Source of the DNA: a virus
Direction: 5' to 3' (one strand)
DNA length: 37,972 nucleotides
Virus record (IMG/VR): IMGVR_UViG_3300045988_102451
Span: 1 to 37,972 of that record
A program made the position numbers and the translations under genes. The notes below the pieces were generated by a model, which worked only from the letters and a program-made list of their open reading frames with translations, did no database searches and was not told where the DNA came from. Numbering within the stretch: the stretch's first letter is position 1; the number at the start of each line of letters is the position of its first letter. Below, one piece after another: positions 8,329 to 36,867 of this stretch.

Positions 8329-8352
8329 TATATATGTAAGGAGATGAAAGAA

Positions 8353-9003
8353 ATGAAATTATTTAGATTTATGAGTAAAAAAGAATTTGAAAAACTTATA
8401 AATGGGGAAAAATTAATTAATAAAAAAAAGCATAAAGGAAGAACTGGAAGTATAGGTTTTTGTTTTATGCAATATAATAAAGATTGTGATATTAATTATT
8501 CTTATGAATATTTATTAGGCATAGTAGATGATGATATTATAGTGGTATTTGAAACTGATAAGAAAAATGTAAATGAAAGTTGGGGAGTGTATGCTGACCC
8601 GTATGGTAGTTTCTTTGATACAATAACTGAAACAGAATATTGCACTAAAGAATATGATAAAAAAACATTTAAAATAATAAAATACGGAGTTAACTTAAAA
8701 GAATGTTCGTTAGATATTAAATGGTGCAATAATAGTGAAGAGGCATTGAATTTAATAAACAAAAAAATAAAGTTAAAAAAAGAAAAACAAAAAGAAATAG
8801 AAAAGAGATGCAATTGTGTAGAAGAAATTAAAGTAGAAAAAGCACAAGAATTAAACGAATTTATAGAAAGTATGAGAACTTGCGATAAAGATTTACAATT
8901 TAAAATAAATGATAAATATTATAAAGTAAATGGCAATTTAGTGGAAATTGAAGGTGATATGGATAGTATTAGATTAAATTTTGATGTTTATTTAAGGAGG
9001 TAA
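8353..9003 (+). CDS. Hypothetical protein, first gene of the accessory island
   Basis: ORF 8344..9003. The ATG at 8353 has better spacing from the 'aaggag' RBS. No family recognised. Confidence 0.6.
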   Translation: MKLFRFMSKKEFEKLINGEKLINKKKHKGRTGSIGFCFMQYNKDCDINYSYEYLLGIVDDDIIVVFETDKKNVNESWGVYADPYGSFFDTITETEYCTKEYDKKTFKIIKYGVNLKECSLDIKWCNNSEEALNLINKKIKLKKEKQKEIEKRCNCVEEIKVEKAQELNEFIESMRTCDKDLQFKINDKYYKVNGNLVEIEGDMDSIRLNFDVYLRR

Positions 9004-9007
9004 TAAA

Positions 9008-9151
9008 ATGAAAAAAATTAAATCAATAAGTATTGATGATGATGTATGGTATTTATTTCAAAAATATGCACTAGATAATAAAACAAATGTATCATCATTA
9101 ATAGAAGAATACATGAGAAATGTTTTAAAAGAAATGAAAAAGGAGAAATAA
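9008..9151 (+). CDS. Ribbon-helix-helix (CopG/Arc-like) protein, 47 aa (not in the ORF track)
   Basis: MKKIKSISIDDDVWYLFQKYALDNKTNVSSLIEEYMRNVLKEMKKEK shows a beta-strand, helix, helix pattern. The RBS 'aaggagg' is upstream. Confidence 0.6.
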   Translation: MKKIKSISIDDDVWYLFQKYALDNKTNVSSLIEEYMRNVLKEMKKEK

Positions 9152-9155
9152 GAAT

Positions 9156-9419
9156 ATGAATAATGAAAAGATATTATATTATTTAGGAATATTAGAAAAT
9201 GGAGCATTAAATTATTATCAAACAGTAAAAACAATAAGAATAGTAAGTCAAAGTATTCAAAATTATATAGAACAATTGGAACAACAATGTAAAAAGCAAA
9301 AAGAAGTTATTGATAAAGCAATAAATTGGACTATTAAATATCAAACAGAATGGTGTCAAGAAGATGAAGTTATAAGAGATTTAAAACAATTATTAGATAT
9401 ATTAAAGGTGTCAGAATGA
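9156..9419 (+). CDS. Hypothetical protein (87 aa)
   Basis: ORF with an 'aaaggaga' RBS. Confidence 0.55.
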   Translation: MNNEKILYYLGILENGALNYYQTVKTIRIVSQSIQNYIEQLEQQCKKQKEVIDKAINWTIKYQTEWCQEDEVIRDLKQLLDILKVSE

Positions 9420-9889
9420 ATATAGAAGCAATAAATAAATGGCTAGATAAAGAATATGGCTGTTCTTATACTAGATTGGAAGAATTACATGATTTTTATT
9501 TTGAAAAGTATTGTGATTTAAAGAAAGAAAACGAACAATTAAAAGAAACTTACAAAGAAGTATTTAATAATTATCAAAAGTTAAAAAAAGAGAATGAAGA
9601 AGTTACATCGTTGAATCTTCATCAAGTAGATAAAATACAACAACTAAAAGAAGAATTAGAAGAATATAAAAATCCAATTAAATATTTTAAATATGCTAAT
9701 AAAAATGTAACAGAAGAAAACAAACAACTAAAAGATAATTGGAATAAGTTAAAAGAATATATGATAAAACAACAAACAAGAATAGTGATTGAAAATACTG
9801 ATGAAGATGAATTTGTTTATACTGATTTATTAAATAAAATGCAAGAATTAGAAGGAAGTGATAGTGATGGACAGAGAAATAGTTGTTAA
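9416..9889 (+). CDS. Hypothetical coiled-coil protein (157 aa)
   Basis: ORF with a 4-nt overlap with the upstream gene. Confidence 0.55.
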   Translation: MNIEAINKWLDKEYGCSYTRLEELHDFYFEKYCDLKKENEQLKETYKEVFNNYQKLKKENEEVTSLNLHQVDKIQQLKEELEEYKNPIKYFKYANKNVTEENKQLKDNWNKLKEYMIKQQTRIVIENTDEDEFVYTDLLNKMQELEGSDSDGQRNSC

Positions 9890-10304
9890 AAAAGTAAATC
9901 TACAACAAGACGAAGTAGATAGGCTTAATAATACAATTGAAATGCGTGATAGCACTATTAAATATCAACAAGACCAATATTTAAAACTTTTAAGGAGATT
10001 AGACAATAAAGAAGCTTTTGGGCTTAATTGTTTATTATTTACGTATGATGAACTTATTAAAATATTAAAGAGTAATTATCATCCTTTAAAAGATTATCTT
10101 GAAAGATGGTTTGGTACATATGAAGATTTTAAAGAAAATGAAGGTTTATTTTTTGCAGAAGATGCCATTGAAGTCGAAGAAAATGATTACTGGTTAGTTA
10201 ATATTAAAACAGATTATGCTTGTAGCTTTAAAGATATTGAATTATTAAATAGAAAAGTTTATGAGTTAGAGAAAGTAGAGAGTGATAGTAATGTTAAAGA
10301 TTAA
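9867..10304 (+). CDS. Hypothetical protein
   Basis: ATG at 9867 inside track ORF 9858..10304, with 'gaaggaag' upstream. Confidence 0.5.
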   Translation: MDREIVVKKVNLQQDEVDRLNNTIEMRDSTIKYQQDQYLKLLRRLDNKEAFGLNCLLFTYDELIKILKSNYHPLKDYLERWFGTYEDFKENEGLFFAEDAIEVEENDYWLVNIKTDYACSFKDIELLNRKVYELEKVESDSNVKD

Positions 10305-10485
10305 AGATAAAGTAATAAATAATGGATTAAAGGGACAAATAATTGATATTAAAGAAGCTGACAATATACCTGGGAATCCTAAATTATATTTAATAAAGTA
10401 CCCTTTATTTACATTTAAAAATCCATTTAAAAGAAAATTATGGACATTTGGTTTTGATTTAGAGAAAGTAGAGAGTGATGAGTAA
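10291..10485 (+). CDS. Hypothetical protein (64 aa)
   Basis: ATG at 10291 inside track ORF 10282..10485. Confidence 0.5.
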   Translation: MLKIKDKVINNGLKGQIIDIKEADNIPGNPKLYLIKYPLFTFKNPFKRKLWTFGFDLEKVESDE

Positions 10486-10857
10486 ATGAATTTAAAAACT
10501 ATAAAGGGTGAAACAGGAACATATGTTGAAATACCAAGAAATAGAATTACATTTAAATCAAAAGAAGCAGAAATTATATTTGATTTAACTTTAGAAAATG
10601 ATGAATTGAGATTAAAAAATCAAGAATTAAAGAAACAACTTGAAAATTACAAAAAATTAGGTTTTAAATATTTACAGGACAAGAATAACGATTTAGAAAC
10701 TCAACAAAAAGAGTTTATAAAGTATTTAGAAGATGAAATAAATAAATGGAATTATAACTATGATAGTTATAACTATGAATATGAAGTTGAAGAACCAACA
10801 GCAGAAGAATTAGCAAACAAAATTTTACAAAAATACAAAAGTATAATAGGAGAATAG
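10486..10857 (+). CDS. Hypothetical protein (123 aa)
   Basis: ORF starting immediately after the upstream stop codon. Confidence 0.55.
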   Translation: MNLKTIKGETGTYVEIPRNRITFKSKEAEIIFDLTLENDELRLKNQELKKQLENYKKLGFKYLQDKNNDLETQQKEFIKYLEDEINKWNYNYDSYNYEYEVEEPTAEELANKILQKYKSIIGE

Positions 10858-10859
10858 AT

Positions 10860-10958
10860 ATGATTGATTTTTTGAAATGGATAGGAACAATAATCTTAGG
10901 ATGTATTGTTTTTGTAATATTTATTATGCGAGGTAAGAATTATGCAGAAGAAAAATGA
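10860..10958 (+). CDS. Small membrane protein (32 aa, not in the ORF track)
   Basis: MIDFLKWIGTIILGCIVFVIFIMRGKNYAEEK. GGAG lies 7 nt upstream of the ATG. Overlaps the start of the MTase gene. Confidence 0.4.
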   Translation: MIDFLKWIGTIILGCIVFVIFIMRGKNYAEEK

Positions 10959-11841
10959 GATAGATAATATTTTTGAGGAAAAGACCTATAAAATTAATAA
11001 TATTTTTTGTGAAGATTGCGTAGAGGGCATGAAAAAAATTAAATCAAATAGTGTAGATTTAGTTGTTACATCACCGCCATATGATGGTATTCGCAATTAT
11101 AATGGATTTTCCCTTGACCTTCATGAAACAGGGAAAGAGATATATCGTATTCTAAAAGAAGGTGGAATCTGCGCTGTTGTTATCCAGGACCAAACAAAGG
11201 ATTTCGGTAAATCGCTAACATCGTTTAGAATTATAGTTGATTGGTGTGATAATATAGGTTTTAAATTATTTGAAAATATTATTTATCATAAAAATGGTAC
11301 AGAAGGAGCATGGTGGAAATATAGATTTAGAGTTGACCATGAATATATTCCTCTATTTTTGAAGGGTAAAAAGCCATCATATTTTAATAAAGAACCATTA
11401 AAAATTCCTTCAAAGCATGGTGGCAAAACCATGACAGGAAGCGGGAATAGAAGGACTGACGGAAAAACAACTGCAACTGTTACTAGACAAATAAATGCAA
11501 TGAAATGTAGAGGAACTGTTTGGGATTATATGATGGCAGGAGATAAAAATCCATTAAAAAGAAAACACCCTGCCGTATTCCCAGACCAAATTCCGTTAGA
11601 CTTAATAACATGTTTTTGCCCTAAAAATGGAATAGTTTTAGACCCATTTATGGGTTGTGGTTCAACGGCGGTTGCCTCAGTCAGATTAAATAGAAATTTT
11701 ATTGGATTTGATATATCTCAAGAGTATTGTGATTTAGCATATGAGAGATTAAAAAAAGATACATTATTTTATAATGTAAATAATAAGGAGATGATAAATA
11801 ATGAAATTAGAAGTTGGAATGTATGTAAGGATGGAAAATGA
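10942..11841 (+). CDS. Beta-class DNA methyltransferase, SPPY type (probably N4-cytosine), orphan
   Basis: Motif IV 'VVTSPPYDG', 'HPAVFPDQIP', motif I 'DPFMGCGSTA'. Visibly GC-richer than the surrounding island. Confidence 0.9.
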   Translation: MQKKNEIDNIFEEKTYKINNIFCEDCVEGMKKIKSNSVDLVVTSPPYDGIRNYNGFSLDLHETGKEIYRILKEGGICAVVIQDQTKDFGKSLTSFRIIVDWCDNIGFKLFENIIYHKNGTEGAWWKYRFRVDHEYIPLFLKGKKPSYFNKEPLKIPSKHGGKTMTGSGNRRTDGKTTATVTRQINAMKCRGTVWDYMMAGDKNPLKRKHPAVFPDQIPLDLITCFCPKNGIVLDPFMGCGSTAVASVRLNRNFIGFDISQEYCDLAYERLKKDTLFYNVNNKEMINNEIRSWNVCKDGK

Positions 11842-12160
11842 TGCTGAAAATATAGTTATTATAAATAGAATTGCAAATGTATTTGAAACCACTATATTAA
11901 CTGAAAATGATGGCAGTATCTATCAAGGAGAATATACAAAAGAAAATGTGATTAAAGCCGATTATAAAATAATTAAAATTTTGGAAGAGGGGGACTATGT
12001 AAATGGATATCCAATATATGAAATAGTTGAGTATGAAGATGATACAAGAGCAATAGTTATTGATGATGATAATAAATCAATTATATGGGAAAGCGAAGAT
12101 ATAAAATCAGTCATCACACATGAGCAAATGAAACAAATGGCTTATAAGGTAGGTGAGTAA
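11801..12160 (+). CDS. Hypothetical protein (119 aa)
   Basis: ORF with an 'aaggag' RBS. Overlaps the MTase 3' end by 41 nt. Confidence 0.55.
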   Translation: MKLEVGMYVRMENDAENIVIINRIANVFETTILTENDGSIYQGEYTKENVIKADYKIIKILEEGDYVNGYPIYEIVEYEDDTRAIVIDDDNKSIIWESEDIKSVITHEQMKQMAYKVGE

Positions 12161-12162
12161 AG

Positions 12163-12366
12163 ATGAAAAAGATAACAATTAGAGAGTTGTATCAAAGAGT
12201 GTTAGATGATAAAGACATTATAAAAAAAATAAGATATAGAAATGATATTTATGAATATAACAAAGAAGAACATTTTTATAGATGTTATGATGATTATGGT
12301 TCTTATTGGTTACCTTTTAATTTAGATGATAAATTAGAAATTTTAGGAGGAAATAAAGATGAATAA
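12163..12366 (+). CDS. Hypothetical protein (67 aa)
   Basis: ORF preceded by a 'ggtgag' RBS. Confidence 0.55.
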   Translation: MKKITIRELYQRVLDDKDIIKKIRYRNDIYEYNKEEHFYRCYDDYGSYWLPFNLDDKLEILGGNKDE

Positions 12367-12634
12367 AAAAATAACCGCTGTATGTAAAATTTGTGGTCAA
12401 GCAATTTTTAATGATGAAAAACATAGTTGTAAATCTAATGATTTAAAAAAAGAATTAATTAGATATCAAAATATACAAGAAAGACAATTTAATACATTAG
12501 TTGAAGCACAAGCCTTTATAAAAAATAATACTTGGAACATTAATGACAAAGAACAAATTAAAGAATTACTTCTTATTATTTGGAATAGTATAACAAATCA
12601 AAAATTTGAAATTAAAATAGATTTAGGAGAGTGA
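12359..12634 (+). CDS. Hypothetical protein (91 aa) with an N-terminal CxxC...HxC motif
   Basis: 'CKICGQAIFNDEKHSC' near the N-terminus, with a 'ggagga' RBS. Confidence 0.55.
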   Translation: MNKKITAVCKICGQAIFNDEKHSCKSNDLKKELIRYQNIQERQFNTLVEAQAFIKNNTWNINDKEQIKELLLIIWNSITNQKFEIKIDLGE

Positions 12635-14794: not shown

Positions 14795-15301
14795 ATGGAA
14801 AATGAAGTATGGAAAATAATGAAAGAACATTCTAATTATGAAGTATCAAATTTAGGAAAAATAAAAAATAAAACGACAGGTAGAATAAGAAAAACATCAA
14901 TCAATAATAAAGGATATGAGCAATTTATTGTTTATATTGATAAAAAACCAAAAACTTTTTATGTTCATAGAGTGGTTGCTAACAATTTTTTAGAAAATTT
15001 AAATAATTTACCAGAAGTTAATCATAAAGACAAAAATAAATTAAACAATCGTGTTGATAATTTAGAATGGTGTGATGGTTGTTATAATTTGCATTACGGA
15101 ACTAGAATAGAAAGAATAATAAATAAGAAAAAACCACTTTACATAAAAATAATTCAAAAAGATAAAAATAAAAATATTATAAAAATATGGGAAAATATAG
15201 ATGAGATTGTATGCAATAATAATTATCATAGAAGCAATATTTACAAATGCTGTCAAGGAAAATTAAAAACTGCATACGGTTATATATGGAATTACCTTTA
15301 A
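14795..15301 (+). CDS. HNH homing endonuclease (NUMOD4 + HNH_3 type), free-standing
   Basis: 'WKIMKEHSNYEVSNLGKIKN', 'GY..F', 'YVHRVVANNFL', 'VNHKDKNKLNNRVDNLEW', C-terminal 'AYGYIWNY'. Confidence 0.85.
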   Translation: MENEVWKIMKEHSNYEVSNLGKIKNKTTGRIRKTSINNKGYEQFIVYIDKKPKTFYVHRVVANNFLENLNNLPEVNHKDKNKLNNRVDNLEWCDGCYNLHYGTRIERIINKKKPLYIKIIQKDKNKNIIKIWENIDEIVCNNNYHRSNIYKCCQGKLKTAYGYIWNYL

Positions 15302-25337: not shown

Positions 25338-25678
25338 TAAAAGTGTCAATAAGTTTATTAAGTGTAATGATAGCGAATGTATTATTAGGAGTAACATTAG
25401 CAAAATTAAAACAAAAATTTAAAAAAGAAAAACTGTTAAATGGTTTGGTCAAGTATTTGGGAATATTTTTAGGAATATCACTTGTGTATCTAGCAGGTTA
25501 TTTAAATCCAAATATTATAGTCGCAAATATAAATAATGTGGAAGTTAATTTAATGACTGGCATAGAAGTTTTATTTATATCAGGTATAGTTTATTATGGT
25601 ATACAAGATTTAATTAAATTGAAGAACTTGTTAGGATTATCAAATGATATTACTCCCACCGATGAAGGAAGAGGGTAG
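25334..25678 (+). CDS. Holin (holin_4_1 / TcdE-like pattern)
   Basis: 114 aa, three TM segments, 'LLGVTLAKLKQKFKKEKLLNGLVKYLGIFLGISLVY', immediately upstream of the lysin gene. Confidence 0.7.
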   Translation: MIKVSISLLSVMIANVLLGVTLAKLKQKFKKEKLLNGLVKYLGIFLGISLVYLAGYLNPNIIVANINNVEVNLMTGIEVLFISGIVYYGIQDLIKLKNLLGLSNDITPTDEGRG

Positions 25679-25679
25679 T

Positions 25680-26507
25680 ATGAATAAGTATAATGCAGAA
25701 AGATTATTTCATACCCTTGATGATATATTCATATCTAGTCCTTACTCAAATAGGATAAGCCCAATAACAGGTGATAGGGAATTTCATGAAGGTGTAGATT
25801 ATTCAGCAAACGGAAAATCAATACCGATATATGCGTTGGACGATGGAGAAGTATTATATGAGGGATACGACAATTCAACAGGTGCAATAATATGTTATAT
25901 AAGATTTCCTAAATTAGATAATCATGTGGGGCTTTATTATCATTTAGCAAATACTGTAATTAATAAAGGCGATAAAGTAACAAAGGATACTAAAATAGGA
26001 ATGATGGGAAGTACAGGATATTCAACAGGAAATCATTTACATTTTGATTGGTTCAAATATAGTGATTATAATAAAGGTTTTTATGATAGAGAATATGAAG
26101 ATTTTAACGAGTATATATTCCCTGAAAACAGAATAAAAGTAACTGCTCCAGTAGAAAGAAATGAAAATATCAATCAGATAAGAGTAATAGTCGATAATTT
26201 ACGAGTTAGAACATCTAGTAGTATAAATAGTAGTGTAATCGGTTTCGTTCAAAATAAGGGCATTTATAACGATTTAGAGGTATGCAAAGAAAATAACTAT
26301 ACTTGGCATAGAATTGCTGACAATCAGTGGATAGCAGATAATGAAGAATGGTTAGAAATATTGCCAATCACAGATTATAAAAAATTATACGAAAAAAGTT
26401 TAAAAGAAATAGAACAATTGAAAAACATTAATAATAATTTATCAAGCAATATGTTAAAATTAAAAGATAAATTAAAACAAATACATGAGTTATCAAAAGG
26501 AGAGTGA
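25680..26507 (+). CDS. M23 peptidase with a C-terminal SH3-like wall-binding domain (endolysin or virion-associated lysin)
   Basis: 'HEGVDY' (HxxxD) and 'GSTGYSTGNHLHFD' (HxH). C-terminal 'LRVRTSSSINSSVIGFV...YTWHRI' is SH3-like. ATG at 25680 follows 'gaagaggg'. Confidence 0.85.
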   Translation: MNKYNAERLFHTLDDIFISSPYSNRISPITGDREFHEGVDYSANGKSIPIYALDDGEVLYEGYDNSTGAIICYIRFPKLDNHVGLYYHLANTVINKGDKVTKDTKIGMMGSTGYSTGNHLHFDWFKYSDYNKGFYDREYEDFNEYIFPENRIKVTAPVERNENINQIRVIVDNLRVRTSSSINSSVIGFVQNKGIYNDLEVCKENNYTWHRIADNQWIADNEEWLEILPITDYKKLYEKSLKEIEQLKNINNNLSSNMLKLKDKLKQIHELSKGE

Positions 26508-28210: not shown

Positions 28211-28489
28211 ATGGAGTTAACAATAGCTTTAGCATTGTCGATACTTGGTTCTGTAATATCAGTATGCAGTTTTGTACTGAATAGAAAAGATAAAAGTAAT
28301 AAAGATATAAAAGAAGAACAAAAGCAATTTGACAAGAACAATTTAATAGAATATAGACTTACTAAAATAGAACAGAATATCGAAAAGATATTAAACAAGT
28401 TGGATGTGTATGAAAAAGAAATTGATGATAGAATAAAAATTGCAATTGATAGTCATATTGCTATTTATCACAATAAAAAGGGAGAATAA
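28211..28489 (+). CDS. Small membrane protein: N-terminal TM plus coiled coil (BhlA/XhlA-like architecture, possible holin accessory)
   Basis: 'LTIALALSILGSVISVCSFVL' TM segment followed by a charged helical region. Confidence 0.5.
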   Translation: MELTIALALSILGSVISVCSFVLNRKDKSNKDIKEEQKQFDKNNLIEYRLTKIEQNIEKILNKLDVYEKEIDDRIKIAIDSHIAIYHNKKGE

Positions 28490-28490
28490 A

Positions 28491-28778
28491 ATGGGAATAC
28501 GTGAGGAAGTGTTAGAAATGAAGAAAGAAGTAGAAGAAATACAAGAGCATTCATTCGCAATGGAACTTTTAAAAGACCAAAAGAAACAGAACAAAAGACA
28601 ATTTATCATAATATTAGTGATATTAGGAATGTTTACTTGCTTATTAGGTTATACTATATATTTGCTTAACGATTTTGGTGTAAGCACCGAAACAGACACT
28701 ATTGATATAGATAATGTAGAAGCAATTGACAATTCACATATTAAAATTGGTGATGATGTATGGGAAAAATCAAATTAA
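28491..28778 (+). CDS. Small membrane protein with a central TM segment
   Basis: ATG at 28491 after an 'agggaga' RBS. TM segment 'FIIILVILGMFTCLLGYTIYLL'. Confidence 0.5.
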   Translation: MGIREEVLEMKKEVEEIQEHSFAMELLKDQKKQNKRQFIIILVILGMFTCLLGYTIYLLNDFGVSTETDTIDIDNVEAIDNSHIKIGDDVWEKSN

Positions 28779-28879
28779 CTAGAACTCGTACAACAAAATA
28801 TCGTAAATCTAAGACTACTAAAGATAGCAAAGGTCGAAGAAGATGTAAGACTTGTGGTAAATTTATGGGAAATAAGTAA
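28760..28879 (+). CDS. Very basic 39-aa peptide (not in the ORF track)
   Basis: MGKIKLTRTRTTKYRKSKTTKDSKGRRRCKTCGKFMGNK. Its stop overlaps the next start (taATG). Weak RBS. Confidence 0.35.
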   Translation: MGKIKLTRTRTTKYRKSKTTKDSKGRRRCKTCGKFMGNK

Positions 28880-29079
28880 TGCTTAAGTTAGATTTAACTA
28901 GAAAAGAATATGATGAATTGAGTAACAAATTAATATTAAATGAATTCCAAAAGCGAATATTTAAATACAGAATAAAAGAATATAGTATTACAAAAATGGC
29001 TATGCTAGAAAATTGTAGTGAAAGCACAATTAATAGAGAGATTAAAAAGATTAAGAATAAAATAAAGAAGATAATTTGA
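28879..29079 (+). CDS. Small sigma-70 region-4-like HTH regulator
   Basis: 'LTRKEYDELS...FKYRIKEYSITKMAMLENCSESTINREIKKIKNKI' fits a region-4/LuxR-type HTH pattern. Confidence 0.55.
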   Translation: MLKLDLTRKEYDELSNKLILNEFQKRIFKYRIKEYSITKMAMLENCSESTINREIKKIKNKIKKII

Positions 29080-29094
29080 TTTATCTTCTTTTTT
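29065..29094 (+). terminator. Intrinsic terminator
   Basis: 10-bp stem aagaagataa (29065-29074) / ttatcttctt (29081-29090), followed by TTTT. Confidence 0.7.
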
Positions 29095-29122
29095 GACATT
29101 AATTAGACATAAACTGGATAAT
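29093..29122 (+). promoter_or_regulatory. Promoter of the ORFan cassette
   Basis: TTGACA (29093-29098), 18-nt spacer, GATAAT (29117-29122). Confidence 0.55.
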
Positions 29123-29267: not shown

Positions 29268-29456
29268 ATGAAAGAAAAAATTGAACAAAAATTAGAAGAA
29301 AGAATTGAAATGATATTAAATAAAAACGTTGAAGATATTACAAATGAAGAATTTGATGAATTAAAAAATAAATTAAATATAATTGATTTTGAAGAAAATC
29401 AAGAAGAAACACAAAAAGATATGATTGAATTAATGACCAAATTATTTAAAAAATAG
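29268..29456 (+). CDS. Small highly acidic protein (62 aa)
   Basis: ORF with an 'aaagga' RBS and an E/D-rich helical sequence. Confidence 0.55.
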   Translation: MKEKIEQKLEERIEMILNKNVEDITNEEFDELKNKLNIIDFEENQEETQKDMIELMTKLFKK

Positions 29457-29469
29457 GAGGTGAATGAAT

Positions 29470-29919
29470 ATGTATAATCAATATAACCCTTATTTAAACC
29501 GTTTTTATGGGCAACAACAAGCGAATATGCCTCAACCAATGGATTTGCCTATGCAACAACAAAACACGCCACAAATGGCTTTAAATAGGCAAAATATACT
29601 ATATGGAAAGCAAGTTGATAGTTTAGAAGTAGTAAAAGCAATAGATATTCCTTTAGACGGAAGCATAAGTTACTTCCCACTTGCTAATGGTAGTGCCATT
29701 GTTACTAAACAACTACAACAAGATGGAACAAGTAAAATAACTATTTATGAACCTAAAACGCAAAAAGAAGATATGAAATTTGCAACTATTGAAGATATAG
29801 ATAAAAGACTTGAAAAAATAGATTTTAGTGAAATTGATGATTTAAAAGACGATTTAGAAGATTTAAAAAAAGAGTTAAAAGATATTAAAAACAAATTAAA
29901 AACTAAAAAGGAGGATTAA
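29470..29919 (+). CDS. Protein with a Q/N/P/M-rich N-terminus, a beta-rich core and an acidic coiled-coil tail
   Basis: The ATG at 29470 lies 9 nt after GGAGG; the track start at 29464 is too close. 'MYNQYNPYLNRFYGQQQANMPQPMDLPMQQQNTPQ'. Confidence 0.6.
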   Translation: MYNQYNPYLNRFYGQQQANMPQPMDLPMQQQNTPQMALNRQNILYGKQVDSLEVVKAIDIPLDGSISYFPLANGSAIVTKQLQQDGTSKITIYEPKTQKEDMKFATIEDIDKRLEKIDFSEIDDLKDDLEDLKKELKDIKNKLKTKKED

Positions 29920-29922
29920 TTT

Positions 29923-30147
29923 ATGAACCCTTTAAATATGATAAAAGGAATGATGGGAATTAGTAATCCTAAAGATATGGCAATGAAAATGCTATCACAA
30001 AATAACAATCCCATATTTAAAAATTTAATTGATATGGCAAACAAAGGCGACACAAAAGGTGTTGAAAATTTTGCTAGAAATTATATGAAAAGTCAAGGAA
30101 AAAATTTCGACCAAGAATTTAATAATTTCAAAAGTATGTTTAAATAA
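29923..30147 (+). CDS. Hypothetical Met/Asn/Lys-rich protein (74 aa)
   Basis: ORF with an 'aaggagga' RBS. Confidence 0.55.
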   Translation: MNPLNMIKGMMGISNPKDMAMKMLSQNNNPIFKNLIDMANKGDTKGVENFARNYMKSQGKNFDQEFNNFKSMFK

Positions 30148-30214: not shown

Positions 30215-30979
30215 ATGCGTGGAGAAAGTGGATTAACTGCTTCTGATGTTGCTCTATTATCTGGAAGAAACGGAAATAATGATGGTTTTGGAGATAATGG
30301 TAGCTGGTGGGTTATTATCTTTTTAATCTTTGCCTTTATGGGTTGGGGTAGAAACGGTAATGGCTTCGGTGGTGGTAATGGTTCAGGTGCTACTGATAAT
30401 TACGTACTTGCTTCTGACTTTGCTACAATTCAAAGGCAATTAAGCGATGGTTTCAATGATTTAACAGCACAATCAAGATATATTCAAAATGGAATATGTG
30501 ATGGTTTCTATGCTATGAACACAAGTCTATTAAATGGATTTGCTGGTGTTAATAATTCAATTATGACAAATGGTTATGAAACTAGAAATGCTATTAATAA
30601 CTTATCAAGTGATTTAGCAAGTTGTTGTTGTAATTTAAGAAGCGATATTCAAGGAGTTAACTACAATCTAGCAACTAATACTTGTGCTTTACAAAACACA
30701 ATGAATATGAATACTAGAGATATAGTTGACACTGTCAATGCAAATTATCGTGCATTACATGATGAAATAGTCGCTAATAGAATTGAAGATAAGAATGCTC
30801 AAATTACTGCACAACAAAATGAAATTAACGCATTAAGATTGTCTGCTAGTCAGTCAGCACAAAATGCTTATTTATTAAGCGAATTAAAACCTTGCCCATC
30901 ACCTAGTTACATAGTACCAAACCCTAATTGTTGCTATAATTATCAAGTAACAAGTGGATGCGGATGTGGAAATTTTTAG
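30215..30979 (+). CDS. Gly/Asn-rich single-pass membrane protein with a Cys-rich C-terminal tail
   Basis: TM 'WWVIIFLIFAFMGW' flanked by GNG-type tracts. 10 Cys, 5 of them in the last ~31 aa ('KPCPSPSYIVPNPNCCYNYQVTSGCGCGNF'). RBS 'aaaggaga'. Confidence 0.7.
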   Translation: MRGESGLTASDVALLSGRNGNNDGFGDNGSWWVIIFLIFAFMGWGRNGNGFGGGNGSGATDNYVLASDFATIQRQLSDGFNDLTAQSRYIQNGICDGFYAMNTSLLNGFAGVNNSIMTNGYETRNAINNLSSDLASCCCNLRSDIQGVNYNLATNTCALQNTMNMNTRDIVDTVNANYRALHDEIVANRIEDKNAQITAQQNEINALRLSASQSAQNAYLLSELKPCPSPSYIVPNPNCCYNYQVTSGCGCGNF

Positions 30980-31024: not shown

Positions 31025-31052
31025 AGAGATAGGAAAGCCCTATCTCTTTTTT
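31025..31052 (+). terminator. Strong intrinsic terminator in the middle of the cassette
   Basis: 9-bp stem agagatagg (31025-31033) / cctatctct (31039-31047), followed by T6. Confidence 0.8.
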
Positions 31053-31080
31053 AAATAATTTATAAGAAAGGAATGATATT

Positions 31081-31539
31081 ATGATACAAAGTTATCAAGA
31101 AACGCCAGTTTTACTTGCTTCAAATTCTAGCCCTTTAACATTTTCTACGGATTGCATAAGAACAAGATGTGCTAATTGCTATGGTTTTCTTCAACATTCA
31201 CAAGGTTCACCACTTTATAAAATTTTAAATGGTGGAAATTATGACGTTACTTTTAACGCAAATGTAACAAGTGCTACTGCTGGACAAGTTGCTTTAGGTT
31301 TATATATGGATGGAGTTCTATTGCCTGGTACAACTGTTATTGCTGACATAGCAACCGCTGGCGATTATGTAAATGTTGCATTTACTAAAACAGTGCCAAT
31401 TTGTTGCAGAGGTGAAGCCACTTTAACAGTACAATCAGTACCTAGTGTTTTAACTGGTACAACTGTAACCGGAACACCAACTGCTACACAAATACCTTTA
31501 TATCAAAATGCTAACTTTAGAATTAGCAAAAGGTCATAA
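31081..31539 (+). CDS. Beta-rich Thr/Val/Gly/Ala-rich protein with 5 Cys (jelly-roll / C1q-TNF-like guess)
   Basis: 'GGNYDVTFNANVTSATAGQVALGLYMDGVLLPGTTV' and 'CCRGEATLTVQSV'. RBS 'aaagga'. Confidence 0.6.
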   Translation: MIQSYQETPVLLASNSSPLTFSTDCIRTRCANCYGFLQHSQGSPLYKILNGGNYDVTFNANVTSATAGQVALGLYMDGVLLPGTTVIADIATAGDYVNVAFTKTVPICCRGEATLTVQSVPSVLTGTTVTGTPTATQIPLYQNANFRISKRS

Positions 31540-31742
31540 TGAATACTGAAAACAATAATGAGTATTTATTCAATTTAATAAATATATTATCTTTTATTAT
31601 TGGTGTTGAAAACTTAAACTTGAATGACAAACAAATTGAAAAATTAGAAAGCCATTTAAGTAAACAAGACAAGCAATATGAGGAGATAATACGATTATTA
31701 AAGGAAGGAGGTATTTTAGATGGAAGAAGAGAACAAAAGTGA
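31539..31742 (+). CDS. Hypothetical protein (67 aa)
   Basis: taATG coupling to the upstream gene. Confidence 0.5.
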   Translation: MNTENNNEYLFNLINILSFIIGVENLNLNDKQIEKLESHLSKQDKQYEEIIRLLKEGGILDGRREQK

Positions 31743-32256
31743 AGAAACTAAAGAAAATGTTTTAATAAAAACAAAATCTGAAGTTGAAAGAATAATAAAA
31801 CAAATAACTGAAAATGGTTTACAAACTGCAAATGTAGAACTTTTATACAAATTAATAGATATTCATAAAGATATTGAAAATGAAAAATATTGGAAAGAAA
31901 AGGAGGAAAATATGATGTATAGAGGAAGAGATTATTTTATGGACGATAGTTATAATGACGGTCGTTCAAGAGATAGCCGTGGAAGATATATGGATGGTTC
32001 TTATGGAAGAAGAGGTGTCCCTGGAACTGGAAGAGGTCGCTACCGTGGATATGATATGATTGAAGAAATGGGCGAACACTACGGAGATTATTCGGAGGGT
32101 AGAGATAACTACGGAAACGATAGAGAAACCGAAAAATCTTTTGATAAAATGCTACAAAGTCTTGAAGATTTTACTTATTTAATAATGCAAGAAGCCGATA
32201 GCCAAGATAAAATTGAAAAGGTTAGAAAAACTGCACGTAAGATAAGTGAATTTTAA
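31720..32256 (+). CDS. Protein with a central Arg/Gly/Tyr/Asp-rich low-complexity segment
   Basis: 'YRGRDYFMDDSYNDGRSRDSRGRYMDGSYGRRGVPGTGRGRYRGYD'. Strong 'aaggaaggagg' RBS. Confidence 0.6.
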   Translation: MEEENKSEETKENVLIKTKSEVERIIKQITENGLQTANVELLYKLIDIHKDIENEKYWKEKEENMMYRGRDYFMDDSYNDGRSRDSRGRYMDGSYGRRGVPGTGRGRYRGYDMIEEMGEHYGDYSEGRDNYGNDRETEKSFDKMLQSLEDFTYLIMQEADSQDKIEKVRKTARKISEF

Positions 32257-32612
32257 TGTATAAATTTTATAATAACAATGCTTTAGGTTTATTTGAGAAC
32301 GATTGTGCAATAAGGTCAATAAGTCTTGCAACAGGTAATAGTTGGGATGATACATACCAATATTTAAGCAACAAAGCAAGGTTAAAAGGAACTATGCTAG
32401 ATGATAGAGATTTTATACTTGATTTTTTAGATGAACGATATGAAAGAGTACCCACATATAATTTATCGGTCGGAGAAGTATCGGCAAAATACAACGACAA
32501 TGTTATTCTTATAACAATGACTGGGCATATTGTTTGTTCTAAATATGGCGTTGTTTATGATAGTTTCGATTGCCGTAAAAGACAAGCCGAGTATTGTTGG
32601 ATTGTTAAATAA
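32256..32612 (+). CDS. Putative papain-fold Cys-His(-Asp) peptidase (118 aa)
   Basis: 'NDCAIRSIS' (Cys17) and 'TGHIVCSKYGVVYDSFD' (His91, Asp102), with spacing typical of small cysteine peptidases. taATG coupling to the upstream gene. Confidence 0.55.
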   Translation: MYKFYNNNALGLFENDCAIRSISLATGNSWDDTYQYLSNKARLKGTMLDDRDFILDFLDERYERVPTYNLSVGEVSAKYNDNVILITMTGHIVCSKYGVVYDSFDCRKRQAEYCWIVK

Positions 32613-32633: not shown

Positions 32634-32709
32634 CAGGGTGTACTCAAGTGGTTTAAGAAAACGGACTGCAACTCCGTTATCGTGGGTTCAAATCCCACCA
32701 CCCTGTCCA
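32634..32709 (+). tRNA. tRNA-Cys (anticodon GCA), CCA encoded
   Basis: Acceptor cagggtg/caccctg. Anticodon arm acgga-ctGCAac-tccgt. T arm gtggg-ttcaaat-cccac. Discriminator U followed by CCA. The D stem is weak and the first pair is C1-G72. Confidence 0.75.
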
Positions 32710-32718
32710 AAATTATAA

Positions 32719-32747
32719 TTGACAGCATTAATTTAATATGTTAAAAT
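32719..32747 (+). promoter_or_regulatory. Consensus promoter directly after the tRNA
   Basis: TTGACA (32719-32724), 17-nt spacer, TGtTAAAAT (32739-32747). Confidence 0.65.
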
Positions 32748-32874: not shown

Positions 32875-32903
32875 TTGACAAATGTTTTAAAAAATGATAT
32901 TAT
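32875..32903 (+). promoter_or_regulatory. Consensus promoter of the early small-gene block
   Basis: TTGACA (32875-32880), 17-nt spacer, TGaTATTAT (32895-32903). Confidence 0.65.
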
Positions 32904-36189: not shown

Positions 36190-36867
36190 TTGGGAAAAGG
36201 TTATACCCTTTATGTCCACGTTTGCCCCAATGATAAAAATTATGTTGGAATAACTAAAAATGCTCCAGAAAGAAGATGGGGAAATGGCAAAAATTATAAA
36301 GGTTGCATTTTGTTTAATAGAGCAATAAAAAAATATGGTTGGGATAATATAAAGCATATTATAGTATTAACCAATTTAACTAAAGAGGAAGCAGAAAATA
36401 AAGAACAAAGTTTAGTATCTTTTTTGAAAAGCAATAATCCCAATCATGGTTATAATATTGCAAACGGAGGATATATAAACAGTGTTAGCGATTTAACTAA
36501 AGAAAAACTGAGAAATGCTTCTACTGGTAAAACTCATAAAGTAAGTAATGAAATAAAAGAAATATTGAGAAAGAAAAATTTGGGAGAAAATAATCCCATG
36601 TTTGGAAAAGTTCCATGGAACAAAGGTAAAAAAATGGATAAAAGTTCATGCCAAAAAATGAGTGTTGCAAAAAAAGGGAAAAAATCTCCTAAAAGAAAAA
36701 AAGTGTTATGTGTAGAAGAAAATAAAATATATAATTCAATAGTAGAAGCAGAAACGCTAACAGGAATAAAAAATATAAGTAGATGTTGCTTAGGCAATAC
36801 TAAAAAAGCTGGTGGTTATCACTGGCAATATTATAAAGAAGAAAAGAAAGTTGAGGAAGAAAAATAA
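36190..36867 (+). CDS. GIY-YIG homing endonuclease (I-TevI-like, NUMOD3 repeats), TTG start
   Basis: 'GYTLYVHVCPNDKNYVGIT', 'RRWGNG', 'YNIANGG'; repeats 'NPMFGK' and 'PWNKGKK'; C-terminal 'AGGYHWQY'. Confidence 0.85.
   Translation: MGKGYTLYVHVCPNDKNYVGITKNAPERRWGNGKNYKGCILFNRAIKKYGWDNIKHIIVLTNLTKEEAENKEQSLVSFLKSNNPNHGYNIANGGYINSVSDLTKEKLRNASTGKTHKVSNEIKEILRKKNLGENNPMFGKVPWNKGKKMDKSSCQKMSVAKKGKKSPKRKKVLCVEENKIYNSIVEAETLTGIKNISRCCLGNTKKAGGYHWQYYKEEKKVEEEK

Follow-up and report, generated by a model that had tools for sequence, protein, structure and literature searches.

What does the gene at positions 30215 to 30979 of this phage genome encode, and where would its product act? The window (the whole stretch of DNA analyzed, positions 1 to 37,972 of the virus record IMGVR_UViG_3300045988_102451) contains there an ORF on the + strand, hereafter T, which starts with ATG at 30215, ends with TAG at 30979, and codes for 254 aa. 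The sequence AAGGAGA lies 8 nt 5′ of the start codon, and no ORF of at least 40 aa is found in any other frame across the same interval. T has ten cysteines (residues 95, 137–139, 157, 227, 239, 240, 249, and 251), i.e., 3.9% of its residues, the highest content among the ORFs of the window with at least 90 aa. The average of the window is 1.46% Cys, at 27.8% GC. The initial annotation had singled out this Cys content as unusual, and rightly so, the clusters being also conserved within the family (see below).

From the N- to the C-terminus, T contains a segment GRNGNNDGFGDNG (residues 17–29), a hydrophobic anchor flanked by Trp and set within Gly-rich linkers, WWVIIFLIFAFMGW (residues 31–44; 30305..30346, + strand), a long helical region (residues 70–224; 30422..30886, + strand), and a Pro/Cys-rich tail predicted to be unstructured, KPCPSPSYIVPNPNCCYNYQVTSGCGCGNF (residues 225–254; 30887..30976, + strand). 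The helical region includes the recurrent DGF/NGF/NGY elements (residues 78, 96, 107, and 119), the CCC motif (residues 137–139; 30623..30631, + strand) within SCCCNL (residues 136–141), and the stretch EIVANRIEDKNAQITAQQNEINALRL (residues 184–209). The tail follows the pattern P-C-P-x-P-x-Y-x-V-P-N-P-N-C-C ... G-C-G-C-G-N-F. The 254-aa ORF, its ten cysteines, and all the motifs quoted in the initial annotation are found where it had placed them, and the layout that it described, with a single N-terminal hydrophobic anchor, a long helical region, and a Cys-rich tail, is borne out.

T is a real gene and not a chance ORF, because it matches PHROG 16490 from end to end (E = 6.9e-49, 168 bits, T residues 5–252 against profile positions 5–276 of 286). 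This full-length match makes T a member of a family that is widespread and uncharacterized; the family is unannotated and hence silent on function. There are at least 7,757 relatives of T, in 1,707 clusters at 50% identity. Phages with such relatives infect Clostridia, Bacilli, and Lachnospiraceae; Clostridium perfringens, Butyrivibrio, and Bacteroides are among the hosts, and crAss-like phages among the carriers. All readable sources of the family are animal gut or rumen. Homologs are not confined to prophages of spore formers, as the initial annotation had thought they might be, since the phages of Butyrivibrio and Bacteroides and the crAss-like phages carry T as well.

Conservation was analyzed in 120 representatives with 35%–75% identity (121 family sequences with the query). 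The CCC motif is retained in 92%–95% of the representatives, C249 and C251 in approximately 90%, C95 in 74%, and C157 in 66%. Among the 121 sequences, CCC occurs once in 97, twice in 13, and three times in one. The prolines P230 and P237 of the tail are retained in 87%–96%. Around the anchor, WW is retained in 79%–87%, GW in 71%–84%, and G24, F25, and G26 in 70%–89%, so that a GFGG-WW-hydrophobic-GWG-NG-G-GG block is conserved, as is P-x-P-A-Y-x-V-x-N-P. This conservation indicates that the cysteines are clearly functional. The C-terminal tails are mosaic across the family.

The initial annotation recognized no characterized family in T, and systematic searches agree. Pfam gives no match and NCBIfam nothing meaningful (best E = 0.16). 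With the T model as query, Foldseek finds nothing in PDB or BFVD at E thresholds of 0.001 and 1, and a PDB profile search retrieves only sub-threshold coiled-coil proteins, such as ATP synthase subunit b and influenza HA2. No similarity to known tail, fiber, or decoration families is found in PHROGs, Pfam, PDB, or BFVD, and a megablast of the 27–34-kb region against phage records has no match. A literature search with the PHROG identifier, phage names, tRNA-Cys, BclA, and crAss labels found nothing on the family or on its genomic neighborhood. PADLOC gives no significant match; a hit to the Zorya protein ZorA (E = 0.013, 12 bits) covers the tail region only. ZorA has a multi-pass membrane domain of the MotA/ExbB type and a long tail, whereas T has a single hydrophobic segment and lacks the multi-pass domain, and this candidate was rejected.

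The AlphaFold model of T has a short hydrophobic helix (residues 32–41) followed by a single unbroken helix (residues 70–224), with a mean pLDDT per ten residues of at least 84 over residues 121–230. The family-averaged hydropathy of this helix has a period of 3.65, a hendecad (11-residue) repeat, up to about residue 186 and a heptad-like one beyond. Hence, the heptad-like stretch of the initial annotation holds for the last part of the helix, but this is only its final quarter, most of it being hendecad. An unbroken helix with an 11-residue periodicity suggests that T works as an oligomeric rod, which would be approximately 23 nm long (an estimate from 155 residues at 0.15 nm each). By our own reading of the 3-4-4 spacing, C138 would occupy a core position.

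The anchor has a mean Kyte-Doolittle hydropathy of 2.0 over 15 residues among the 121 family members. Its N-flank has on average 0.69 Lys/Arg and 3.12 Asp/Glu in the same sequences, and its C-flank 1.3 Lys/Arg and 2.2 Asp/Glu. Because both flanks are nearly free of Lys/Arg and the N-flank is acidic, the charges weakly favor an N-out/C-in orientation. Direct reading of the sequences shows no hydrophobic signal at the N-terminus of the proteins encoded by the conserved neighbors of T described below (D, its alternative D2, A, B, F, and G). As these partners lack signal peptides, the Cys clusters of T may be metal sites in the cytoplasm. With such flanks and such partners, the extracytoplasmic placement of T proposed in the initial annotation is not established.

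A conserved cassette of seven to eight elements, in the order R, A, B, T, terminator, D, (E), F, G, tRNA-Cys, has T as its signature gene. Gut metagenomes provide about 160 phage loci with this cassette. In a set of 83 loci with T (80 IMG/VR loci and three phage records), A is present in 80, D in 72, F in 75, and G in 74, and the same gene orders recur in 80 genome-contig loci and two further phage records. We rate the cassette as novel and its function as unproven. The cassette, the terminator 3′ of T, and the linked tRNA-Cys had all been missed by the initial annotation.

The cassette opens with R (28879..29079, + strand), a stand-alone HTH protein of 66 aa of the GerE/LuxR/sigma-70-region-4 type and its putative regulator. 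A profile of 26 members matches GerE (1fse, E = 1.7e-8), regulators of the LuxR type, and region 4 of SigF, FliA, SigW, and RpoE. In 124 of 165 loci, the + strand carries a homolog of R 5′ of the T gene, typically at a distance of 0.5–1.5 kb. Directly 3′ of R there is a promoter-like site, TTGACA-18-GATAAT (29093..29122, + strand), which agrees with 11 of 12 consensus positions and is identified by this consensus match only. A (29464..29919, + strand) has 151 aa; its N-terminus is rich in Gln, Asn, Pro, and Tyr, and it also contains a small β-domain and a charged coiled coil. It is rich in Lys and Glu, has no Cys, and matches phrog_21718 (E = 7e-10). An iterative HMM detects it beside T in every one of the 80 IMG/VR loci and in the majority of the genome loci. 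B (29923..30147, + strand) is a helical protein of 74 aa rich in Met, Asn, Gln, and Pro. It is found by HMM in the ABT-type cassettes, and a divergent B occupies the gap between A and T in the four GATDF-type loci inspected, for one of which this holds only with readthrough of in-frame TAG stops; B thus appears to be general to the cassettes.

Directly 3′ of T lies a hairpin followed by a T-run that resembles an intrinsic terminator (31025..31057, + strand), the only such site between 27.5 and 34.7 kb. A terminator-like hairpin is present in the gap between T and D in 63 of 89 nonredundant loci, and in 0–1 at the other junctions of the cassette. D (31081..31539, + strand) is a Cys-containing β-protein of 152 aa with similarity to BclA_C (C1q/TNF-like). 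The similarity is weak for D of the window (PF18573, E = 2.5e-4, 21.3 bits, below the gathering cut-off of 38), and nine of 20 family members match BclA_C, with a best E of 2.3e-7. The family has one invariant Cys. The D slot is filled in different cassettes by BclA_C-like proteins or by unrelated Cys-rich β-proteins; hhalign gives no support for a relation between D1 and D2 (probabilities up to 12%), and D2 begins with cysteines in an invariant C-x3-C-x2-C pattern, spaced as they typically are in metal or cluster sites. No similarity is found between D and the tail fibers of the same phage. The tail of T was not found to co-vary with the type of D, so a contact between T and D lacks the support of co-variation.

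E (31539..31742, + strand), an ORF of 67 aa, is found only in the closest relatives (two loci), and its place in the cassette is doubtful. F (31720..32256, + strand; phrog_28802, E = 4.5e-10) has 178 aa, with helical ends and a middle region rich in Arg, Gly, and Tyr. Pfam searches with the families of A, B, F, and D2 give only scattered chance matches. G (32256..32612, + strand; phrog_3754, E = 5e-14) is predicted to be a papain-like Cys-His-Asp enzyme of 118 aa. Its invariant residues are N6, N8, D16, C17, H91, D102, and W115, and in its AlphaFold model, built with database homologs (pLDDT 87), C17 is close to where a helix begins and H91 is at the first turn into a strand; the papain-like fold calls for a Cys at the beginning of a helix and for His and Asp on the strands that follow. 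Foldseek finds nothing significant for G (best E = 0.11), several of the top weak matches being thiol enzymes (USP5, Tae4, a tegument-like DUB, TssM, and PLpro) among unrelated folds. Among 18 members of the family there is no Pfam match with E up to 1, hence no C39 domain, and PDB gives no sequence match. The Geobacillus phage GBK2 has a homolog of G and carries no T, which weakens the case for a G dedicated to T. The cassette ends 22 nt 3′ of G with a tRNA-Cys (GCA) gene (32634..32709, + strand; ARAGORN and Rfam, 57.7 bits), the only tRNA gene in the window. Of the 48 nonredundant cassettes ending with G, 25 have a tRNA-Cys linked to it, as against none of the 43 cassettes with other orders.

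The siting of the cassette is variable: it lies beside lysis, head, tail, or recombination genes. In ten diverse loci, the upstream neighbors are lysis/peptidase genes in three, head genes in two, tail or unknown genes in two, and exonuclease genes in three; the idea that the cassette always follows lysis genes, true of only three of the ten, was rejected. It is directly 3′ of holin/endolysin genes in the window, in the temperate relative L030, and in phage Ceridwen, and approximately 3 kb 3′ of a holin gene in CPD1 and PMQ04. The T locus of the crAss-like phages cr52_1, cr115_1, and cr116_1 is 3′ of holin or LysB-like genes. The cassette also lies 3′ of tail-fiber genes in the window and 3′ of portal and minor-head genes in L036, and T stands among genes annotated as structural in cr52_1 and cr115_1. 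In L030, it occupies the interval between the lysis genes and the integrase; some phages with the cassette, including that of the window, have no visible integrase. Many of the host bins are Clostridia. From these placements, the cassette would be accessory and mobile. The neighbors of T in crAss-like phages, Bacteroides phages, and CPD1 have no hhalign support for homology with the families of A, B, D, F, G, or R (at most 12%), and a by-eye impression that gp22, gp24, and gp25 of crAss correspond to F, D, and A was withdrawn after this comparison.

We tentatively favor, as a possible rather than probable account, that T is an abundant rod rooted in the membrane, facing the cytoplasm, stapled by thiols or metals, and carrying D. 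As the major product of the cassette, T would be made in large amounts: high expression biased toward T is suggested by the terminator 3′ of T, by the tRNA-Cys after G, and by the GGT/GCT codons favored by T and D as by the major capsid gene, this last being weak evidence. Its N-terminal anchor would insert in the cytoplasmic membrane of the infected or lysogenic cell, leaving an acidic N-tail of approximately 28 aa outside and the rod inside. The helices would associate into a parallel multi-stranded rod of the length given above, whose chains would be joined by the CCC ring and by the C-terminal Cys knot, through thiolate-metal sites or, if exposed to oxygen, disulfides. The tip would bear D, the variable, signal-less, Cys-rich β-protein. 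Location of T and D in the same compartment is suggested by their composition, since both, unlike A, B, F, and R, are extremely poor in Lys and Glu and rich in Cys: K+E is 3.1% in T and 3.3% in D, the two lowest values among the 51 ORFs of the phage. Averaged by family, K+E is 3.9% in T and 6.2% or 5.3% in the two D types, against 14%–20% in A, B, F, and R. The flank charges, the lack of signals in the partners, and the C-x3-C-x2-C of D2 argue for the C-in topology and for cytoplasmic partners, among which A, B, and F would be assembly factors and G a thiol peptidase or amidase, perhaps with one of the components as its substrate; a cut after G-F-G-G of T is one possibility. More speculatively, the resulting dense layer of stalks and heads on the inner face of the membrane might act at the envelope, most plausibly against the DNA or ejection proteins of superinfecting phages, or as a tether for phage components, and the diversification of D might track a variable target.

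Several observations argue against a membrane rod. The hydrophobic core of T, of approximately 14 residues, is short for a membrane-spanning helix, and the topology is read from a weak charge bias only. A composition in which Lys and Glu are scarce and Asn, Ser, Thr, and Gly abundant is typical of virion fibers and unusual in cytoplasmic domains. The exchange of D and the putative chaperones would suit a receptor-binding fiber equally well. Finally, no homology to A, B, D, or F is detected among the genes that adjoin T in crAss-like and Bacteroides phages.

The chief rival is an accessory fiber or needle carried by the virion, unlikely but by no means far-fetched, in which T would be the shaft, D a distal knob, and A, B, and F assembly chaperones. 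The Met-rich B would shield the hydrophobic N-terminus of T, which would either dock the fiber or enter the target membrane during infection. T and D have the most fiber-like composition of the genome, beyond that of the tail fibers themselves (K+E 8%–9%), and one would expect a host-range determinant to show what the D slot shows, unrelated Cys-rich β-proteins replacing each other. The resemblance of D to BclA_C, the lack of secretion signals in the partners, the layout with a major subunit, a terminator, and then minor subunits, the capsid-like codon preference, and the proximity of the cassette to the tail-fiber, portal/minor-head (L036), and structural (cr52_1 and cr115_1) genes fit a fiber as well. 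Yet a strongly hydrophobic N-terminus is normally captured by the membrane-insertion machinery at the ribosome exit, and it would need a docking site common to siphoviruses and crAss-like podoviruses. A fiber is also difficult to reconcile with a cassette that has its own regulator and lies in places among recombination genes, and with the lack of similarity to the known tail, fiber, and decoration families.

The opposite orientation of the membrane rod, N-in/C-out, would make T a surface stalk, exported by way of a signal anchor and spanning the wall or the periplasm, with the Cys tail displayed or cross-linked outside, acting in exclusion at adsorption or injection or altering the cell surface. 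This was the reading of the initial annotation, and we consider it rather improbable. The estimated length of the rod is close to the width of the periplasm or of a Gram-positive wall, and Cys rings beside multi-stranded coiled coils are typical of extracellular proteins, such as COMP, fibrinogen, and collectins. The paucity of Lys in T, with that of Glu, would suit such a location, and the site between the lysis genes and the integrase in the temperate relatives (L030) is a classic one for lysogenic conversion. The acidic N-flank, nearly free of Lys/Arg, is contrary to the positive-inside rule, however, all the co-conserved partners lack export signals, and the anaerobic gut hosts offer little oxidant for disulfides.

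It is quite improbable that the cassette is a portable, self-regulated module, supplied with its own tRNA-Cys, for a new kind of membrane-active stalk and head based on thiols or metals, in which G would prime T by a cut after G-F-G-G that uncovers a fusion-like peptide, and D would be an exchangeable recognition head. The Cys rings of T would then switch, by redox state or metal, on passage between the anoxic gut and oxic surroundings.

A role as lysis accessory is very doubtful. T would be a spanin-like or membrane-disrupting protein that completes rupture after the action of holin and endolysin. The cassette is near holin/endolysin genes in the window, L030, Ceridwen, CPD1, PMQ04, and crAss-like phages, small ORFs with a membrane-type segment occur more often on its upstream side (54 of 80) than on its downstream side (31 of 73), and the combination of a membrane segment, a coiled coil, and conserved cysteines recalls the i-spanin Rz. 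Against this, the cassette is not beside lysis genes in seven of the ten diverse loci, many of the hosts have a single membrane, no lipoprotein ORF is embedded in or adjacent to T, the composition of T is unlike that of spanins, and the phages already have complete sets of holin and endolysin.

Even less probable is a conversion of the spore surface, in which the GerE-like R would activate the cassette in the mother cell, and T and D would enter the coat or exosporium in the manner of BclA. GerE, a regulator of spore-coat genes, is the best named match of the R profile, D resembles BclA_C, the products are rich in Cys and poor in Lys like coat and exosporium proteins, and many host bins are Clostridia; but HTH domains of the GerE type are generic, T occurs in phages of Bacteroides and of the non-sporulating Butyrivibrio and in crAss-like phages, and the cassette is found in phages with no visible integrase, including that of the window. 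Least probable of all is a leader-cleaved toxin or fusogen, in which G would cut T after G-F-G-G and free a fusion-like peptide, so that T and D attack or fuse membranes. In its favor are the likeness of the N-terminus of T to a double-glycine leader, the conservation of G24, F25, and G26, the Cys-His-Asp residues of G, the deubiquitinases, which cut after Gly-Gly, among the weak fold matches of G, and the sub-threshold alignment of the Gly-rich hydrophobic region and helix with HA2. Against it, the similarities are all nonsignificant, Pfam has no match for G, C39 or other, G occurs without T in GBK2, and T lacks both a second membrane anchor and a second heptad-repeat helix.

The family of T is among the larger uncharacterized families of phage proteins, and whether the cassette builds an inner-membrane platform, a surface stalk, or a fiber, it would provide a function important to many gut phages and invisible to annotation. 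Few accessory modules of phages have a dedicated regulator, an internal terminator favoring one product, and a matching tRNA. The physical linkage of a tRNA-Cys to genes for Cys-rich proteins is a rare and directly testable case of a gene-specific phage tRNA, and three pairs of cultured hosts and carriers of T are available: C. perfringens with CPD1/PMQ04, Butyrivibrio with Ceridwen, and Bacteroides uniformis with C3_41T2LP, their T proteins being CPD1_039, QHJ73768.1, and WLZ21182.1. The fusion-like reading, if true, would reveal a phage-encoded analog of class I fusion/spike machines shared by gut phages across host phyla.

How does T compare with known systems? Among virion proteins, the gp26 needle of P22 and Sf6 and the H protein of phiX174 are helical coiled-coil rods of approximately 230–330 aa; the Sf6 needle has a TNF-like distal knob, and in the pilot protein H a hydrophobic, Gly-rich N-terminus precedes a long helix. 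No profile or fold similarity between T and gp26 or H is found, and T differs from them in lying outside the structural block and having its own regulator. Fibers of the BclA/C1q type share with T and D a stalk, a globular trimeric head, and Cys clusters, and R resembles GerE. The stalk of T is an α-helical coiled coil instead of a collagen and belongs to a separate, membrane-anchored polypeptide, and, unlike BclA and exosporium proteins, T occurs also in phages of non-sporulating hosts.

Like T, the i-spanins (Rz of lambda and LysB of P2) combine a membrane segment at the N-terminus with a long coiled coil and with functionally conserved cysteines. The T gene is sited beside lysis genes in several phages, but in only three of the ten diverse loci; in cr52_1 and cr115_1, a gene annotated as LysB-like is two genes upstream of the T homolog. 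T has no sequence similarity with them, is extremely poor in Lys and Glu, has a hendecad repeat, occurs in phages of single-membrane hosts (C. perfringens and Butyrivibrio), and belongs to a cassette that is not always near lysis genes. The positive N-flank expected of a type II N-in/C-out i-spanin fails, the flank of T being acidic instead of basic, and no o-spanin partner is embedded or adjacent, the next ORF, D, starting with MIQSYQETPV and lacking a lipobox. T was also rejected as a holin, since it exceeds approximately 150 aa and its C-terminal 200 residues, with only two Lys, are not highly charged; separate holin-like ORFs are at 28211 and 28440.

The N-terminus of T, L7-T-A-S-D-V-A-L-L-S-G-R (family consensus S-L-A-D-I-A-A-V-T-G-N), partially follows the consensus of double-glycine leaders, its last residue not being Gly. 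Such leaders have the form L-S-x-x-E-L-x-x-I-x-G-G and end with GG, GA, or GS. A type IV pilin was rejected, the leader of T being acidic and without Glu at +5 (G-F-G-D-N-G-S-W-W-V-I-I). Many HA2 chains are found below threshold in the profile search (E = 0.1–1, profile 38–166 against HA2 9–131), and in HA2, as in T, a hydrophobic, Gly-rich peptide precedes a long central helix, which is an analogy only. T differs from HA2 in lacking a C-terminal membrane anchor and a second heptad-repeat helix; with nonsignificant matches, one hydrophobic segment, and one helix, it was rejected as a class I fusion protein. The resemblance to HA2 is probably behind the labels "spike protein" and "glycoprotein" given to crAss homologs of T.

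The best PDB profile match of T is subunit b of the F-type ATP synthase (E = 0.033, not significant, T residues 122–210). Subunit b differs from T in having neither Cys clusters nor Gly-rich linkers, and T has no ATP synthase context. In both, an N-terminal membrane helix would precede a long single cytoplasmic helix, and the helix of subunit b also has a hendecad repeat.

The open reading frame at 30215-30979 (+) is a real gene, coding for the protein T of 254 residues, in which every motif quoted in the initial annotation was found in its place. It starts with ATG, 8 nt downstream of AAGGAGA, and stops with TAG. Its ten cysteines (residues 95, 137-139, 157, 227, 239, 240, 249, and 251) had been called unusual, and they amount to 3.9% of the protein, the highest content among ORFs of at least 90 residues in the window, where the averages are 1.46% Cys and 27.8% GC. 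The absence of a characterised family also holds: T has no Pfam or NCBIfam match and no meaningful one in PADLOC, and aligns end to end with PHROG 16490 (E 7e-49), a family without functional annotation. The family is very large, with at least 7,757 homologues in a search of 5.8 billion proteins and 1,707 clusters in an exhaustive search of 50%-identity representatives (126 of them at E ≤1e-30). Among deposited phages, relatives occur in four from C. perfringens, in the Butyrivibrio phage Ceridwen, in the Bacteroides phage C3_41T2LP, and in five crAss-like genomes, under labels such as "spike protein/glycoprotein" or "outer capsid protein/viral fiber"; the crAss and Bacteroides relatives show the full T architecture once translated. 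Many uncultured gut phages also have T relatives, and when collections of bacterial genomes were searched, almost all of the 80 best loci proved to be contigs of phage size, from gut or rumen MAGs spanning many taxa. Hence the family is not confined to prophages of spore formers, a restriction that the annotation had raised.

Across 120 representatives, T keeps a short N-terminal motif (S-L-A-D-I-A-A-V-T-G), a G-F-G-G, a hydrophobic stretch between WW and GW, and the Gly-rich linker that follows. The motifs R-D-I, S-Q-x-x-Q-N-x-Y-L, and P-x-P-A-Y-x-V-x-N-P are kept too, as are the cysteines (C95 in 74%, CCC in 92-95%, C157 in 66%, the terminal C-G-C in about 90%). An AlphaFold model from 82 sequences has helices at 9-15 and 32-41, a single unbroken helix at 70-224, and a disordered tail, with block-mean pLDDT of at least 84 over 121-230. 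The long helix would have about 155 residues and an estimated length of roughly 23 nm; a lone helix of this size is stable only as an oligomer. The family-averaged hydropathy period is 3.65 residues over 70-186, i.e., a hendecad, which fits the visible 11-residue NGFxGVNxAIx repeats, and about 3.4-3.5 over 186-224. By our reading of the 3-4-4 spacing, C138 falls on a core position of the helix, flanked by C137 and C139. The 11-residue unit containing CCC is duplicated inside some family proteins, and the gene itself can be in tandem (three copies in locus L163, two in L122 and L153), so that the rod varies in length and in its number of Cys rings. Among 121 members, 13 have two CCC motifs and one has three. 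A Foldseek search with the model gave no match, and a PDB profile search gave only sub-threshold ones, to ATP synthase b (E 0.033) and many HA2 chains (E 0.1-1). These are no evidence of homology, and they probably explain the "spike" labels.

T marks a conserved cassette as its signature gene. From the ORFs that neighbour it in the window, iterative HMMs were built and applied to 80 IMG/VR loci, with T at 38-100% identity, and to three phage records; the adjoining genes are A (29464; 80 loci), D (31081; 72), F (31720; 75), and G (32256; 74). They lie close together on one strand, arranged as A-B-T-D-F-G or G-A-T-D-F, and both arrangements are found again in 80 genome-derived loci and in Ceridwen. 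B is a protein of 75 residues rich in Met, Gln, Asn, and Pro. Its HMM missed it in the G-A-T-D-F type, where a divergent copy occupies the A-T gap in all four loci inspected, in one of them readable only through in-frame TAG stops. In-frame TAG stops occur in cassette genes of some carriers (L054 5660-5990, L076, and gp21-gp25 of the crAss phage cr52_1, L002), consistent with stop-codon reassignment in these phages; on this reading, the cassette crosses genetic-code variants. The small upstream ORF R (28879-29079) was found in 124 of 165 loci, and its profile matches GerE, LuxR-type HTH domains, and sigma-factor region 4. Between a promoter-like site after R and gene A, a helical and extremely charged ORF of 62 residues (29268-29456; 39% K+E) weakly matches the A-family HMM (E 0.0013). 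In 29 loci, D is replaced in its slot by D2, an unrelated family whose members have 7-10 Cys and begin with an invariant C-x3-C-x2-C, and for which Pfam gave no match.

A terminator-like hairpin, the only one within 27.5-34.7 kb, is directly 3′ of T (31025-31047). A hairpin with a T-run is present in the T-to-D gap (median 103 nt) in 63 of 89 nonredundant loci, and the remaining junctions, of 2-50 nt, have a hairpin in none or one. The window's only tRNA gene, tRNA-Cys(GCA) at 32634-32709 (+), is 22 nt 3′ of G. Across all loci, 32 of 70 tRNAs are tRNA-Cys, every one just 3′ of G, and among nonredundant loci they accompany 25 of 48 cassettes ending in G versus 0 of 43 of other orders. This linkage is old, because T similarity within the set drops to a ratio of 0.23. 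The G-A-T-D-F loci have instead tRNA-Met, Tyr, Asn, or Gln, a few hundred nucleotides 3′ of F. Cysteine is frequent in the families of T (4.3%), D (3.2%), D2 (6.0%), and G (3.6%), against which A, B, F, and R have 0.1-2.4%. Like the major capsid gene, T and D favour GGT and GCT codons, in small counts that are weak evidence of high expression. Terminator, tRNA-Cys, Cys content, and codon use are together signs of high, T-biased expression. The 300-nt gap after tRNA-Cys holds two strong promoter-like sites (32719-32747 and 32875-32903; both 11/12 matches with an extended -10 TG), which probably mark the start of early or regulatory genes.

T and D also have a common composition: their K+E contents (3.1% and 3.3%) are the two lowest of 51 ORFs, followed by the major tail and fibre proteins (8-9%), most others having about 14% to 30%, and family means agree with these values. 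Hence they probably share a compartment or structure. Direct reading of the sequences of A, B, D, D2, F, and G reveals no N-terminal hydrophobic signal. The flanks of the T anchor are nearly devoid of Lys and Arg, with means of 0.7 K/R and 3.1 D/E on the N-terminal side and 1.3 K/R and 2.2 D/E in the following 30 residues; these charges argue against a classical signal anchor and, weakly, for an N-out/C-in orientation. T may be produced abundantly as the major subunit of an oligomeric rod, whose chains would be tied together by the conserved thiol clusters and which the N-terminal anchor would root in a membrane. We tentatively prefer an arrangement in which T is oriented N-out/C-in in the cell producing it, so that both rod and Cys sites are cytoplasmic, the Cys sites bind metal, and the rod docks the signal-less D; speculatively, the cassette would act at the envelope, e.g., in exclusion or tethering. 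The main rival is a virion fibre whose shaft would be T and whose knob would be D. It accords with the composition, with the variability of the D slot, and with the putative chaperones, but we consider it doubtful because T has a hydrophobic N-terminal segment and the cassette has its own regulator and no constant place in the genome. An outward-facing stalk spanning the wall or periplasm is unlikely.

The window represents the nearly complete genome of a siphovirus-type phage, in which replication and methylase genes (first methyltransferase, 2536-3264) precede terminase, portal, head, tape-measure, and tail genes, then an M23 peptidase, tail fibres, holin-like ORFs at 28.2-28.8 kb, an unannotated block at 28.9-32.6 kb, and Sak4/exonuclease and SSB genes; no integrase was seen in it. 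Between the portal and the minor-head gene, an unusual place for such a block, 8344-12634 holds unannotated ORFs and a second DNA methyltransferase (10942-11841). Just 5′ of R, two small overlapping ORFs (28211-28489 and 28440-28778), each with one hydrophobic segment and a coiled-coil or charged tail, have weak matches, phrog_1863 among others, and are probably holin or lysis-membrane proteins. The sole recognised peptidoglycan hydrolase is the M23 peptidase/amidase-like ORF at 25644-26507, among tail genes. The cassette follows lysis genes in the window, locus L030, Ceridwen, and three crAss-like genomes; in the C. perfringens phages CPD1 and PMQ04, the holin gene is about 3 kb upstream of it. 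In 10 diverse loci, the upstream neighbours are endolysin/peptidase (3), head (2), tail/unknown (2), and exonuclease (3) genes, and in L036 they are the portal and minor-head genes. Hence the cassette is a mobile accessory unit and not a fixed part of lysis or structural modules. A role as a lysis accessory is improbable. In L030, the holin gene is followed by R, the cassette, and a serine recombinase. Relatives that carry a serine recombinase and a repressor immediately after the cassette (L030 8219-9556 (-)) are therefore temperate; since no integrase is visible in the window, the cassette occurs in both temperate and seemingly nontemperate phages. Homing-endonuclease-type ORFs are common: the window has an HNH ORF (14795-15301), which separates the minor-head from the scaffold/capsid genes, and a homing endonuclease (36190-36867) flanked by the Sak4 and SSB genes. 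In three other phages, such an ORF is inserted beside T (CPD1_038, L001 5095-5718; L104 7289-7804 (-); L014 6895-7716), the one in L104 matching the window's HNH endonuclease and the other two being HNH-like by eye, an arrangement that points to the conserved T region as a homing target.

D resembles the C1q/TNF-like C-terminal domain of BclA (9 of 20 members match, best E 2.3e-7), the window's own D scoring below the Pfam cut-off; that the cassette converts the spore surface is very improbable. G has the invariant residues N6, N8, D16, C17, H91, D102, and W115. Its model (pLDDT 87) places Cys17 near a helix start and His91 at a strand start, and the fold search gave no significant match, several of the best weak ones being papain-fold thiol enzymes; a fusogen or toxin primed by G is the least probable reading. 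A G homologue with 27% identity lies in the Geobacillus phage GBK2 (L166 4986-5375), between tail/unknown genes and RecE/RecT. This phage of an aerobic thermophile lacks a T homologue, and so the G family extends beyond the cassette.

Among known systems, the i-spanins, ATP synthase b, HA2, the phiX174 H protein, and the P22/Sf6 needle have a layout like that of T, but T departs from each of them in defining features. T and D taken together resemble BclA/C1q-type fibres, but the D match to the BclA domain is weak, and the pair appears to differ from these fibres in defining features too. No description of the T family or of the cassette was found in the literature. T belongs to PHROG 16490 only, and we provisionally regard the cassette as a system unlike the kinds known from phages.
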